From: a virus
Taxonomy: Duplodnaviria; Heunggongvirae; Uroviricota; Caudoviricetes
DNA: 4,724 nucleotides
Direction: 5' to 3' (one strand)
Virus record (IMG/VR): IMGVR_UViG_2671180422_000001
A program made the translations under genes and the position numbers. Numbering within the stretch: position 1 is the stretch's first letter; each line of letters opens with the position of its first letter. The notes beneath the pieces are model-generated. The model saw nothing but the letters and a program-made list of their open reading frames with translations, had not been told where the DNA came from and did not search any database. Positions 1 through 4,724 of this stretch are shown piece after piece.

Positions 1-9
1 GAATGCCAT
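1..9 (-). CDS. tfa: First three codons (Met-Ala-Phe) of a probable tail fibre assembly (Tfa-like) gene, truncated by the window edge
   Basis: ATG (complement of 7-9) overlaps the stf stop as TAATG; ATG-GCA-TTC gives MAF, the N-terminus I recall for lambdoid Tfa proteins; position immediately downstream of stf is the canonical one. Only 9 nt are visible. Confidence 0.3.
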
Positions 10-3000
10 TATGCAAGCCTCACAATATAGTTAAATGCGATGTTTTTGACGGTGTTTTCCGCGTTACCAGCAGCGTTAACGGTGATGGTGTGTCCATGTG
101 AGCCAATCGCAACGGAGTGCGTATGAGCACCAATACCGACAGTATGTGCATGTGCGCCTGCGCTTGCAGCAGTGCCGGACAGCGAGTGGGTATGAGCACC
201 ATCTGATGATGTCTTCCCTGCATTACGAGTCTGGCCACTACCGCTTGTTGTGCTCATAATCCCCGCGCTTGGATTTGAAATCGCGGTATAACCATTAGGG
301 AAAATGCTCGTGTTCGTGCCACCAAATGCACCGGAACTCTTGTGTTGGTGCGCACCGGCACTATTTGCAGTCCCGCTAATACTATGGGTATGCGCCCCGG
401 TGTTATTCGTGGATTTGGTTCCGTAATCAAACGACGATGTGTTTTTCGTCCCCAAATCCGTACTGGATGCGCTGGCGCTGTGGGTGTGCGATTTAATGCC
501 GTCCTGTTCCTGAGATAATACGGCTCGACCACTGGCAGGTTTGCCCTTAATCGTCCAGCCACGCATATCAGGGATCACGCCTGACGGATAAGCGGCTGCA
601 AGTTTTGGGTAGGCAGATTTGTCAAAAGTCTGCCCCTGCATCAGGGCATAACCAGACGGAACGGTATCTGATGGCCACGGGATTGGTGCACCGACTGGAT
701 AAAACTCTGCAGGAGGATGAGCCGAGGTGTAAAGCTGCGCCCAACCACTTTCAAAACCATAACCGTCTCTTGAAGAACGGTAGAACAGACCACCATTTCT
801 GTAATGCGCCTTCATCTGCAGGGTCCGGCAACTTCCGACTCCGGTATAGAAGTTAACCAGAATATAGCTGTCGCCAGAGCGGGTGACATTGTAAGCGCCT
901 GATTCGGCATTCCATGGAACGCCCCCATCCGCATCGGCATACGCATCCGTTGCTCTTCTGGCAAAAGCAGCCACATGCGCGGCGGTTAAAGTGATATCAG
1001 TAGAACCATCAAATGGAACACCGGATATTTTTCTTGCAGTCTGAAGTTTTGTAGCAGTTGCAGCATTACCAGTGGTGTTCTGATTACCCGTAGTGTTTAC
1101 ACCTGGAAGGTTAATATTTGCAGAACCGTCGAAAACAACTCCACCGATAGATCTTGCCGTCTGCAATTTCGTGGCTGTACTTGCATTACCATTCAATGAA
1201 CCAGTTAATCCACCTGTAACAGACAACGGACCTGAAACTGTTCCTCCGGTTGTTGGCAGTGCTCCAATATCTAACGGCGTCGGTTTCTGATGTGTGCTAT
1301 ACATCGTATAAACAACACCATCGGTAACGCTGGAAGGCTTACTCGCTGAATATGTTGGCGATGTATAAATAGAAACTGTCGCATTTGCAGTACAATCCCA
1401 ATGGATATTTACACGAGTCGCATAATTGCCAATCTCAACGTAAATATCATATGTATCGCCGGATGTGTTGATCCAGGCGAAATTCGTTAATCCGACGGCT
1501 GTACGCTTCCACAAAGCCCCGGTAATTCCTTTGGGGTTTCCATTGCCTGCTCGTAGAACCAGTTCTGAAATGCCTGCCTGATGTGGGGAACCGACGTTGT
1601 AACCAGCGCCACCAATCAATGCGATGTAAACGATGGAACTCGCTTGTGGCATGGTAACCGTAGCCAGTTTGAACCACCCAGCCCCGCCAGAGAAAGACAT
1701 CGTTACTGAATTTAAAGTACCAATATCTTTCGGCGTTAATGTTATATCCGCAGTCAGTGCTTTTCCGTTAACTTTTCGGTTAGATGGCACCCTGCTATTC
1801 GCATTGTCATTGGCTGCTTTAACTGCTTTTGGCGTTGCGGCCAGCGATTCACTGGTGCTATCAACAGCACTGCTAAGTTTCACAACACCTTTAGTTGTAA
1901 GGCTTGCGTCTTCCATCGCAACTGCACCGGCAATCTCTTCAGCACGATCAGCAGCAGCTTCCGCACGGGTCGCAGCGGATTCAGCAGCAGTTTTGCTCTG
2001 AGATGCTGCCGTCGCACTGCCTGCCGCCTCTGTTGCTTTCGTGGATGCCGTCGTGGCGCTGCCCTTCGCTGCTGACGCCTGTCTGGTCGCCTCATCTTTT
2101 GAAGCAGACGCAGATGATGCCGATGACGCTGCCGAACTGGCGGACGATGCGGCTGCCGTTTTTGAGGATTCTGCACGGGTTTCCGACGCTTTCGCATTCG
2201 TTTCGGATGTCTTCGCTGCGGAAGCAGACCTCGCTGCTGCGCTGGCCTGTACAGCGGCTTCGCCAGCCTTCGTTGTGGCTGTTGAAGCGGACGATGCAGC
2301 ACTTTCTGCCGATTTTCCGGCGGCGGTGGCACTGGCTGAGGCCTGCCCGGCACTTGTTGACGCGGCACTGGCAGACGACGCAGCCGCTGTTTTTGAGCCT
2401 GCCGCAGCCGAGGCGCTCTGTCCCGCTGCCGTTTCAGAAGACCTGGCGTTTGTCTCAGACGTCTTTGCCGCCTTCGCGGAATTGCCTGCCGCCGTTGCCG
2501 AGGAAGCGGCACTACTGGCGCTTGATGATGCGTTCGTTTCTGATGATTTCGCTGCCTCTTTTGAGGCCGCCGCATCCCGGGCTGAGGTGGCTGCTTCTGA
2601 CGCCTTCGTGGTCGCGGCGGATGCAGAAGTGGCTGCTGATTGTTGTGACGCTGCCGCATTCGTTTCTGACGTTTTCGCCGCAGCGGCACTGGTAGCTGCC
2701 GCGCTTTTTGAGGACTCTGCAGCAGCAGCACTTTTCGATGCTTCACTGGCCTTTGTTGATGCCGTTCCTGCGCTGGAAGATGCTGACTGAGCCGACGACG
2801 CGGCCTGTCCGGCTGACGTGCTGGCTGCGCGTGCTGAGCCTGCAGCATCAGTCGCATGGGTTACCTCCTGTTCCTGTGGTTTAAACCCATTCTGGTTTTG
2901 GCTAGATTGAAAACGTGCCGGATAAAGAATCTGCATTTCGCTGATTTCACCCTTAAAAAAATTGGCCAGACGTTCTGCAAGATCGATAGATGGAACTTGT

Positions 3001-3110
3001 TCCAGTCTTTCAATACGACTCAGCGTCGCTGGATTGACCTGAACGCCAGCAGCAACATGCTGCAAAGTAAATCCGTGCGCCTTACGCACATTCCGTAATG
3101 GTGATTGCAT
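9..3110 (-). CDS. stf: Chimeric ORF: Cro/XRE-type HTH segment (aa 1 to ~85) fused in frame to a lambda-Stf-like side tail fibre (aa ~86-1033)
   Basis: Uninterrupted 1033-codon ORF with ATG at 3110-3108 and GGAGG (complement of 3115-3119) 4 nt upstream; stop TAA is the complement of 9-11. N-terminus [43 protein letters not shown] fits the Cro/C1 HTH pattern. Residues ~86-400 are Ala/Ser/Thr-rich with repeated KTSETNA motifs; two [25 protein letters not shown] tail-fibre repeats at aa 642-706; C-terminus GAPIPWPSD...[23 protein letters not shown]...[15 protein letters not shown]...[11 protein letters not shown] matches my recollection of the lambda Stf / T4 gp37-type His-rich tip. No search was run. 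Confidence 0.85.
993..1187 (-). repeat. Two copies of a ~25-aa phage tail-fibre repeat ([25 protein letters not shown])
   Basis: Reverse complement of 1113-1187 encodes [25 protein letters not shown] and of 993-1067 encodes [25 protein letters not shown]; this motif is characteristic of the phage tail-fibre repeat family. Confidence 0.65.
1911..2855 (-). repeat. Low-complexity Ala/Ser/Thr-rich coding repeat region of the tail-fibre shaft, with reiterated KTSETNA-type units
   Basis: Translation aa ~86-400 is >80% A/S/T/G/K/E; K(T/S)SETNA recurs at aa 146-152, 188-194, 216-222 and 300-306 (e.g. 2655-2675, 2193-2213); near-identical nucleotide strings gcattcgtttcNgaNgtYttcgc recur. GC-rich and repetitive, producing long shadow ORFs on other frames. 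Confidence 0.75.
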
Positions 3111-3207
3111 ATGACCTCCACATATTGCGTGATGAGCATATTATTTCACGCAAATATTTTGCGCAAGTTGATTTGCTTAACGCGCAATAAAGAAATGTAA
3201 TAAACGC
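3111..3207. promoter_or_regulatory. Divergent promoter/operator region (OR-like) between the cro::stf ORF and the repressor gene
   Basis: 97-bp gap between divergent starts. Inverted repeat TTGCGTGA (3125-3132) / TCACGCAA (3146-3153); CGCAAAtatTTTGCG (3149-3163); palindrome TTGCGCAA (3159-3166); GCGCAA again at 3182-3187. Leftward promoter candidate: -35 TTGCGC (complement of 3161-3166), 17-bp spacer, -10 TAATAT (complement of 3138-3143). Rightward candidate: -35 TTGCTT (3173-3178), 17-bp spacer, -10 TGTAAT (3196-3201), placing the transcription start at about the repressor ATG. Confidence 0.55.
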
Positions 3208-3900
3208 ATGAACATAGGAAACCGAGTCAGACAACTTCGCCAGGCGAAGAACATGAAAATCGCCGATCTCGCTGAAGCAATAGGAGTGGATGCGGCGAAT
3301 ATCTCACGCCTGGAAACAGGTAAGCAGAAACAATTCACTGAACAAGCCCTGAGTAATATTGCCAGGAGCTTAGGTGTTGATATTGCAGATCTCTTTACCT
3401 CAGACGTCAAAAGCAATACTGTATGTAAAAACAGTATTAGTGAGGATGTTGCGCAGGTGAAGGATGTATTCCGTATTGAAATGCTGGATGTCAGTGCCAG
3501 TGCGGGAAATGGCCTTATCCAGGGCGGTGATGTCATTGATGTGATTCATGCCATTGAATACAGAACTGATAATGCTGTATCGATGTTTGGCGGACGGCCA
3601 GCCAATCACATTAAAGTTATCAACGTTCGTGGGGACAGTATGTGTCCAACCATTGAGCCAGGAGATCTCATCTTCGTTGATGTCAGTATCAATCAGTTTG
3701 ATGGAGATGGTATCTATGTATTTGGTTTTGATGATAAAATTTATGTCAAACGACTGCAAATGATACCTGACAAACTACTGGTGATTTCTGATAACCAGAT
3801 TTACCGTGAATGGGGAATTACCAGCGAAAATGAACACCGGTTTATGGTCTTTGGAAAGGTCTTAATCAGCCAGTCACAAACCCTTAAGCGACACAATTAA
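3208..3900 (+). CDS. cI/LexA-like phage repressor: N-terminal XRE-type HTH plus C-terminal S24 (LexA/UmuD-type) autopeptidase domain
   Basis: 230-aa ORF, stop TAA 3898-3900. HTH IGNRVRQLRQAKNMKIADLAEAIGVDAANISRLETGK; candidate Ala99-Gly100 cleavage site (SAS-AG-NG, 3502-3507); catalytic Ser144 in VRGDSM (codon 3637-3639) and Lys181 in YVKRL (codon 3748-3750), with the same Ser-Lys spacing (37 residues) as I recall for LexA. No Shine-Dalgarno before the ATG, consistent with a leaderless transcript. Confidence 0.85.
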   Translation: MNIGNRVRQLRQAKNMKIADLAEAIGVDAANISRLETGKQKQFTEQALSNIARSLGVDIADLFTSDVKSNTVCKNSISEDVAQVKDVFRIEMLDVSASAGNGLIQGGDVIDVIHAIEYRTDNAVSMFGGRPANHIKVINVRGDSMCPTIEPGDLIFVDVSINQFDGDGIYVFGFDDKIYVKRLQMIPDKLLVISDNQIYREWGITSENEHRFMVFGKVLISQSQTLKRHN

Positions 3901-3920
3901 CCCTTACCTCCTCATCAATT

Positions 3921-3945
3921 AGCCACCCAAAGGTGGCTTTTCATT
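3921..3945 (+). terminator. Rho-independent terminator downstream of the repressor gene
   Basis: AGCCACC (3921-3927) caaa GGTGGCT (3932-3938), a 7-bp GC-rich stem with 4-nt loop, followed by TTTTCATT (3938-3945). Confidence 0.6.
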
Positions 3946-3959
3946 ACCCTTTAAATTGC

Positions 3960-4008
3960 ATATCTCGCAACAAAAACACTTGCATAATGCGCAACTTCAT
4001 TTTATCTT
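3960..4008 (+). promoter_or_regulatory. Candidate second operator/promoter cluster (OL/PL-like), rightward
   Basis: The OR half-site recurs: CGCAA at 3966-3970 and GCGCAA at 3989-3994, within TTGCATAATGCGCAA (3980-3994). -35-like TTGCAT (3980-3985), 17-bp spacer, -10-like TATCTT (4003-4008). Hexamers are weak matches; this is inference. Confidence 0.25.
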
Positions 4009-4418
4009 TCTTTCCAGACAAACAAACAAGGTACTAACAAAATTTGGTTGTAACACGGCGTATGGCACATGCGTCGTTAGCGGTCTGGGGACGTTAAAGG
4101 GGACAATCCACTCCTTGCTCGGGCAAACAAACCAGGTAGCCGGAATGTGCAAGTCAATGATGATGCTGATAAGACGCCTAACCAGCGTGGCGATTCGGTT
4201 TGACGCCTGGGAAGAGACCAGGGTGCAACGATGAGGGCATTTATGGAGCCGCGACAAAGTGTGGTGCTGTAACTGGCTAAGTGCTCTCAGCGTTGTGGTA
4301 ATCCGCGAAATGGCGCGGCGGTAAGTATGGCGGGGTTACTCTTTCCCCGTTGAGGACACCGGATTGTCAGGTTGACCATACGCCTGAGTGACAACCCCAC
4401 CACAACAGCCACTGCTTT

Positions 4419-4465
4419 GGCGGTACCAGTTTGTACCCTTGCTTCCGGCTGGTACCGCTCTTTTT
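4419..4465 (+). terminator. Candidate rho-independent terminator (plus-strand only)
   Basis: GCGGTACCAG (4420-4429) pairs perfectly with CTGGTACCGC (4449-4458), extendable by two G-U pairs; loop ~15 nt; followed by TCTTTTTAC (4459-4467). No A-tract upstream, so unidirectional. Confidence 0.45.
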
Positions 4466-4554
4466 ACAAAACAGAGAAGAGCATCACCGGACGACGGGCT
4501 CATAACCCAATCCATCCGGGCGGCTGCCACCGCAGGTGTTCTTCTCTGTTTTGT
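4466..4554. repeat. Perfect 15-bp inverted repeat ACAAAACAGAGAAGA / TCTTCTCTGTTTTGT flanking a 59-bp spacer
   Basis: Arms at 4466-4480 and 4540-4554 are exact reverse complements (15/15); flanking bases extend the pairing imperfectly (CACC 4485-4488 with GGTG 4535-4538; UUUUU 4461-4465 with GGAGA 4555-4559 as RNA). Begins right at the T-tract of the preceding terminator and ends 49 bp upstream of the next ORF start. Confidence 0.6.
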
Positions 4555-4602
4555 GGAGAAACTAACCGACCTTACAGGGTCGATATGATGAGGAGCAGCA
4601 AA

Positions 4603-4724
4603 ATGGCTAGCGAACGCAGTACTGATGTGCAGGCATTTATCGGGGAGCTGGACGGCGGCGTATTTGAAACCAAAATCGGCGCAGTTCTCAGTGAAGTCGC
4701 TTCCGGTGTGATGAACACGAAAAC
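4603..4724 (+). CDS. 5' end of an ORF of unknown function (MASERSTDVQAFIGELDGGVFETKIGAVLSEVASGVMNTK...), continuing beyond the window
   Basis: ATG at 4603 preceded by AGGAG (4591-4595) at 7-nt spacing; frame open to the window end. Two further in-frame ATGs at 4585 and 4588 lack a comparable RBS. I do not recognise the product. Confidence 0.45.
   Translation, partial: MASERSTDVQAFIGELDGGVFETKIGAVLSEVASGVMNTK

Follow-up and report, generated by a model that had tools for sequence, protein, structure and literature searches.

An ORF that opens at the right-hand end of a 4,724-nucleotide stretch of viral DNA (the whole stretch is hereafter called the window), downstream of a phage repressor gene, raises the question of whether it is expressed in the lysogen or belongs to the lytic program. 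The original prediction placed it where lambdoid prophages carry lysogenic exclusion or defense cargo of the rexAB or sieB type. We favor another reading, to which we give a probability of roughly 0.7: the ORF is the beginning of yfdP, which heads the PL operon of a lambdoid prophage that has no N gene and survives here as a deletion remnant, and its product is a lytic partner of YfdQ rather than an exclusion system.

Identity and predicted fold of the ORF at 4603

The start site and the strong ribosome-binding site (RBS) described in the original prediction were confirmed. The ATG is located at 4603–4605 on the plus strand, and the frame stays open up to the window end at 4724, which cuts the 120-codon gene after codon 40 and 2 further nucleotides (translation MASERSTDVQAFIGELDGGVFETKIGAVLSEVASGVMNTK). 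Direct reading of the sequence places a Shine–Dalgarno (SD) motif, GAGGAG, at 4590–4595 on the same strand, with a spacing of 7 nt to the ATG. Translation of the adjoining region revealed 2 in-frame ATGs upstream (4585–4590, plus strand), which serve as an alternative start in some phage annotations; initiation at 4585 or 4588 would give a product beginning MMRSSK-MASERS, and the PhiR47_1 record uses this upstream start for a 381-nt gene of 126 aa. The start at 4603 is favored by (i) the SD spacing; (ii) the RefSeq and K-12 annotations (b2359, 120 aa); and (iii) the N-termini of relatives from other genera.

Positions 3900–4724 of the window are 100% identical to many E. coli chromosomes, in which the ORF is annotated as yfdP. 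In E. coli AR435, which is 100% identical over this range, the ORF runs to 120 aa under the same name, and the 40 codons in the window show 100% identity to the corresponding part of its product (WP_000135680.1). The K-12 gene b2359, located in the cryptic prophage CPS-53/KpLE1, is also identical across the 40 codons. The window itself contains YfdP residues 1–40 only, and the family-profile match was made with the full protein of about 120 aa from the identical locus, which matched PHROG 204 with an E-value of 1.2e-49 (the PHROG annotation is unknown function); all close homologs have a precomputed Pfam assignment to PF27127, named "YfdP." The N-terminal 40 residues, for which no family had been recognized, therefore do have one. 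Searches of Pfam-A, NCBIfam, and PADLOC gave no match for YfdP, in the case of Pfam-A because the copy searched is older than PF27127. A profile search of 1.8 billion representatives recovered a strongly conserved family of 523 clusters at 50% identity, nearly all of which are single-domain proteins of 110–125 aa.

The family (PF27127; PHROG 204) also includes ST64B gp37 and LLS gp39. The full gene has 99–100% identity in the identical loci, with the same neighbor, yfdQ, and the same early-left operon setting, and there is no difference from the known family within the gene itself. By these sequence matches, the ORF at 4603 is a real gene and not a chance ORF, and it is the 5′ end of a gene of unknown function that is already catalogued in K-12, RefSeq, PHROGs, and Pfam. 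The gene call as such changes nothing.

The AlphaFold model of YfdP, computed with 84 diverse homologs, has a pLDDT of 91.6 and contains a helix (residues 9–39) and three long antiparallel strands (residues 44–55, 58–71, and 74–88); the protein also has a turn with the invariant sequence EEDTTETP and a C-terminal tail that is extended and conserved. YfdP is thus predicted to be a soluble α+β protein of 120 aa, in which one 30-residue helix packs on a three-stranded antiparallel sheet. The structure prediction that had been suggested for this ORF yielded this confident model and no solved relative: a Foldseek search of BFVD found only uncharacterized phage proteins of similar size, and sequence searches of the PDB with 2 profiles gave only noise (AcrB and calponin domains, E > 0.01). 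The protein matched no housekeeping gene and no routine recombination or replication protein, so the earlier statement that its function is open stands.

Position of yfdP relative to the repressor and its operators

As the original prediction noted, yfdP is co-directional with the repressor gene and downstream of it. The repressor gene (3208–3900, plus strand) encodes a CI-type protein of 230 aa with an HTH domain and a Peptidase_S24 domain (Pfam PF00717, E = 6e-19, in addition to HTH families), and is followed by its intrinsic terminator, mapped to 3921–3938 or to 3921–3943 on the plus strand (−11.8 kcal/mol, z = −3.7). Beyond this terminator, 2 palindromes of the form TTGC-N7-GCAA, TTGCATATCTCGCAA (3956–3970) and TTGCATAATGCGCAA (3980–3994), occupy 3956–3994. 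The palindrome recurs between cro and cI at 3173–3187, and a copy with one mismatch is found at 3125–3139. In total, 4 perfect copies were found, 3 of them in the 2 regulatory regions, where about 0.07 would be expected by chance in 4.7 kb. We read the palindromes at 3956–3994 and those between cro and cI as putative OL and OR operators, respectively.

A candidate PL promoter is placed at 3980–4008 on the plus strand, with a −35 element TTGCAT (3980–3985), a 17-nt spacer, and a −10 element TATCTT (4003–4008). It agrees with the consensus at 7 of 12 positions and was not picked by a promoter consensus scan; we infer its placement from its overlap with the operators and from the point at which similarity to phages of other immunity begins. 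This similarity, to cdtI and Stx2c phages, is seen only from about 4036 on, a short way past the operators.

The yfdP ATG is located approximately 610 nt past the operators, and the untranslated leader from the inferred start to the ATG is approximately 590 nt long and contains a second, conserved terminator (described below). This is not the position of rexAB-type lysogenic cargo. In lambda, rexAB lies between cI and OL/PL, on the same transcript as cI, whereas yfdP lies past OL/PL and 2 terminators; what yfdP shares with rexAB and sieB is that it is co-directional with the repressor gene and on the same side of it, and neither a sequence relation nor a defense-model match links them. The cI terminator, the operators, and the leader terminator all precede yfdP, which therefore appears to be the first gene of the early-left (PL) operon. 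By this arrangement, yfdP occupies the slot of lambda N and not that of rexAB, and the positional reading is corrected to this extent. The same 3 features argue against expression of yfdP in the lysogen, where the gene is probably silent. In both AR435 and PhiR47_1, whose loci match the window exactly or almost exactly, the gene order is cro (leftward), cI (rightward), about 700 nt, then yfdP, yfdQ, yfdR, eaE, ea22, and, further on, xis, int, and att; the window ends before yfdQ. A placement of yfdP in the early-left operon has already been published (PMC12315714).

The minus strand of 9–3110 contains an ORF of 1033 codons, in which a Cro-like HTH region (about 83 codons) is joined in frame to a side tail fiber gene (stf), with the junction at about 2860; the tail fiber portion consists of interior Ala/Ser-rich repeats and the C-terminal part. 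AR435 has an intact 86-aa cro at the same place, followed by ymfL, and the window therefore comes from a prophage remnant that no longer has anything between cro and stf. The exact cro–stf junction was not found in one piece in the complete E. coli genomes of the collection. In the GC-rich Ala/Ser repeat region of the tail fiber gene, on the opposite strand, matches to isrG (RF01390) were found at 1946–2703 (plus strand). They were rejected at 20–31 bits against a gathering score of 100, and are almost certainly composition artifacts.

The yfdP–yfdQ pair and its possible roles

The gene yfdQ (DUF2303) lies immediately 3′ of yfdP in 78 of 78 loci from different species, counted at the species level among loci with enough downstream DNA. 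The pairing persists where identity of YfdP falls to 42–52%, as in Marinobacter, Endozoicomonadaceae, Aggregatibacter, and a Pseudomonadales MAG, and in most Enterobacterales yfdR, which encodes an HD phosphohydrolase, is the next gene after yfdQ. The present analysis adds that the pairing of yfdP with yfdQ is inseparable throughout Gammaproteobacteria, and this makes the recently solved YfdQ assembly the obvious handle on YfdP. This structure (PDB 9o7m, "YfdQ Protein") has 36 chains in one entry, and its sequence is that of YfdQ from the Xanthomonas phage MET23-P3, in which yfdP–yfdQ lie in an operon with Erf, YqaJ, and SSB. We found no paper for PDB 9o7m or PF27127 in the literature. Homology between YfdP and YfdQ themselves was considered and rejected, hhalign giving no relation. 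At 69–1388, the MET23-P3 sequence also encodes a 439-aa protein with weak, Ro60-like matches to TROVE/vWA_Ro60. Ro60-like proteins usually act with Y-like non-coding RNAs.

We propose that, in the lysogen, the repressor at OL/PL would shut off transcription, with the leader terminator as a backstop; sequence anatomy and synteny both suggest this. Production of YfdP, along with that of YfdQ and YfdR, would then await induction or infection. The gene order and the yfdQRST phenotype suggest that YfdP would most likely serve YfdQ, which forms oligomers, as a small partner or regulator: multicopy yfdQRS/T inhibits DnaA-dependent initiation, YfdR binds DnaA, and yfdP is dispensable for this replication-inhibition phenotype (PMC4776307). 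Early in the lytic cycle, the YfdP–YfdQ module may target the DNA metabolism of the host or of the phage, as a form of host takeover. Gene order suggests that YfdP and YfdQ may be in physical contact, and the partner role is our best guess.

An unlikely alternative is that YfdP–YfdQ form an early anti-nuclease or anti-defense module, analogous to Gam or Abc2 or acting against restriction, which would shield phage DNA after induction. Early-left operons often encode such functions, among which are Gam of lambda and Abc2 of P22, and YfdQ, with a median pI of 5.0, is an acidic protein that builds a large assembly (9o7m). Many lambdoid phages with the yfdPQ cluster have no known anti-RecBCD gene, but the cluster is also present in phages with a complete Rec module (PMC12315714). 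Moreover, no similarity to known inhibitors was found, and the pI of the YfdP family ranges from 4.6 to 9.3 with a median of 6.1, so that YfdP is not an obvious DNA mimic; we rejected the DNA-mimic idea because the family is not consistently acidic.

That yfdP, with yfdQ, is lysogeny-expressed exclusion or defense cargo like rexAB or sieB, transcribed from its own promoter or by read-through from cI, is in our judgment distinctly unlikely. Its orientation with, and position downstream of, the repressor gene are compatible with such a role. The cryptic prophage CPS-53 retains yfdPQRST, and loss of CPS-53, yfdQ, or yfdS lowers stress tolerance according to work cited in PMC4776307. In addition, yfdPQ mRNA is detectable in uninduced K-12 cells, where yfdPQ of CPS-53 are transcribed under the host factor SrsR (2022 paper); expression from a decayed resident prophage therefore does occur. 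However, the upstream region on which expression in K-12 hinges has been replaced and differs from that of the window. Sequence in common between K-12 and the window is confined to the part from 4584 onward, some 17 nt ahead of the yfdP ATG, and covers the RBS and ORF, the leader and the repressor gene being replaced, and the K-12 copy of yfdP, without a leader and repressor of the window type, is driven from an upstream region bound by SrsR. Further points against the cargo reading are the operators and 2 terminators between cI and yfdP, the occurrence of the pair in an early operon beside recombination genes in the Xanthomonas phage, and the published early-left placement (PMC12315714). The check for defense signatures that had been suggested, run with PADLOC v2.0.0 at E ≤ 0.1 on YfdP, YfdQ, YfdR, and the products of the next 2 genes, gave no match.

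The K-12 spacer between yfdO and yfdP (2473247–2473603) differs in sequence from the window and contains 4 TCAGATTTTGA-like repeats, which are the SrsR binding sites (2022 paper). These sites could be operators of a lost phage repressor that are now used by the host factor.

A cryptic recombination function of yfdPQ is very improbable. The pair sits in the Rec-module place of the early-left operon and adjoins Erf/YqaJ/SSB in the Xanthomonas phage, and the many chains of 9o7m, with C as the example chain, would be compatible with assembly on 2 nucleic-acid strands, which is speculation from a listing of protein chains only. By contrast, the Xanthomonas phage has its own Erf, neither YfdP nor YfdQ matches any single-strand annealing protein (SSAP) or exonuclease family, and the authors of PMC12315714 argue against such a function, the cluster co-occurring with complete Rec modules.

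RNA elements in the yfdP leader

Like lambda N, yfdP is the first ORF downstream of OL/PL and lies behind a long structured leader. Lambda N protein is disordered. That YfdP is an N-type or other protein antiterminator, for which its place as the first gene after PL in the slot of N and the terminator that precedes the operon genes could be cited, is already close to refuted, since YfdP has no arginine-rich motif (one Arg and 2 Lys in residues 1–40, in agreement with the original prediction that the ORF is not of the N type) and is predicted with confidence to be a folded α+β domain, the leader terminator is upstream of yfdP itself, and the family always occurs with yfdQ, also outside lambdoid contexts. 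The leader has no boxB: no boxB-like 5-bp stem with a GNRA-like pentaloop follows the boxA-like string, which is itself not kept in relatives. This string, CGCTCTTT at 4456, was considered as boxA/nut and rejected; it is confined to the E. coli version, the relatives having CGCCCTTTTT, so its likeness to boxA is due to chance and the string is the terminator tail. A T-box likeness of GGCGGUACC was rejected as well, being also confined to the E. coli version and having no Rfam match. ARAGORN found no tRNA in the leader. In the whole-window Rfam search, nothing was found in 3900–4610 at E ≤ 1, and a search with the leader alone gave noise (E 1.2–5) far under the gathering scores.

The leader of approximately 590 nt folds better than its shuffles (z = −3.8) and is a mosaic of modules found separately in other phages. 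Its terminator-like hairpin (4419–4466, plus strand; −21.2 kcal/mol, z = −3.9) has a 13-bp stem, GGCGGUACCAGUU/GGCUGGUACCGCU, followed by UCUUUUU, and is located 138 nt ahead of the yfdP ATG. Of 36 yfdP loci from other genera (Enterobacter, Kosakonia, Klebsiella, Serratia, Yersinia, Proteus, Providencia, Xenorhabdus, Rahnella, Morganella, and others), 26 have a hairpin with a T-run (dG ≤ −8) in the corresponding position, the stems of which have changed yet remain complementary. A long hairpin (4462–4558, plus strand; −49.7 kcal/mol, z = −6.9) has a closing helix that takes in the U-run and a conserved GUGGAG. This helix (14–24 bp) is preserved by compensatory changes in 26 of the 29 leaders folded, from at least 10 genera.

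Within 4419–4558 of the window, the terminator is thus followed at once by a hairpin of about 95 nt that base pairs the terminator U-run with the conserved GUGGAG. At least 10 genera of Enterobacterales have retained this arrangement of terminator and long hairpin ahead of yfdP by compensatory change. It may be an antitermination target, an RNase III site, or a means of translational control, all of which are possible. Like the RNase III hairpin of the lambda N leader, it places a long, near-perfect stem directly ahead of the RBS that serves the first PL gene; the 2 hairpins have no sequence relation.

On the 3′ side of the long hairpin, yfdP leaders contain GUGUGGAG, a small GC hairpin, and the RBS. 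In the window, the small hairpin GACCUUACAGGGUC (4567–4582, plus strand) is just 5′ of the RBS and, taken alone, weak (z = −1.4); other genera have a GC-rich hairpin, such as CGGCGGTGGCAGCCGCC, at the same place. The 3′ leader module (4418–4602) accompanies yfdP, and SfV and SfIV have it at 97% identity. The mid-leader segment (4292–4414) has about 89% identity to unannotated stretches of PPompW phages, Evi, and PhiR42_1, and also of an Actinobacillus phage. It occurs independently of yfdP and of the upstream RNA element described below, and is a further mobile non-coding module.

The upstream part of the leader contains a conserved structured RNA, which we designate element A (core at 4054–4226, plus strand, with a further helix extending to about 4298). 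Element A is supported by a covariation test and scores 140.6 bits with its covariance model. It comprises 150–175 nt and at least 5 helices, 5 of which are supported by compensatory changes, and a possible pseudoknot is formed by GCACAU/AUGUGC, both of which are invariant. In 46 diverse copies, 97.8% of cells are paired in the five-helix structure, compared with 89.9% in shuffles and 25–44% when the partners are slid, and 10 base pairs have changed on both sides.

The invariant 19-mer of element A, GGTAGCCGGAATGTGCAAG, matches more than 120 viral contigs in IMG/VR, and we found no paper on it in the literature. Element A is present in 1636 of 5426 complete E. coli genomes (30%); among the matches listed from these genomes, RefSeq has no annotation under it, and it has no family in Rfam 15. 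Lambdoid phages of several immunities carry it downstream of the repressor genes and ahead of differing first genes, and P1/P7 have it between tRNA-Ile and ban. Of 120 viral contigs, 41 show it with tRNA-Met directly on its 5′ side and/or tRNA-Arg directly on its 3′ side, all in the same orientation. A tight linkage between element A and yfdP was rejected: only about 6 of 75 species-level loci have element A ahead of yfdP, and it is therefore a separate mobile module.

The closest functional analogy for the leader may be the put RNA of HK022, a cis-acting antiterminator that is likewise a structured RNA right after PL in a phage without N, with terminators before the genes. Element A has no sequence similarity to put or to the HK022 immunity region: neither nhmmer with the element A profile nor cmsearch with its covariance model gave a match in HK022 22–34 kb. 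Element A (150–175 nt, at least 5 helices) is also larger than put (about 70 nt, 2 stems), and, unlike put, it adjoins tRNA genes and precedes P1 ban, with no terminator after it.

That a phage without N should have a conserved terminator 138 nt ahead of its first gene implies some antitermination or processing step. It is tentatively possible, although we hold it to be doubtful, that lambdoid phages without N gate the early-left operon by the conserved terminator, which would be passed with the help of a leader RNA of a novel type that works in cis (element A and/or the 4462–4558 hairpin), acting as a put-like, protein-independent antiterminator or as a Rho shield; the module would be reused before P1 ban and in phage tRNA arrays, and YfdP–YfdQ would form a large early assembly for host takeover. 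The leader control region, rather than the ORF, is the object of interest, and its RNA elements merit a follow-up of their own. Together with the conserved terminator, the leader RNA poses the testable question of how the many lambdoid phages without N switch on their early-left genes.
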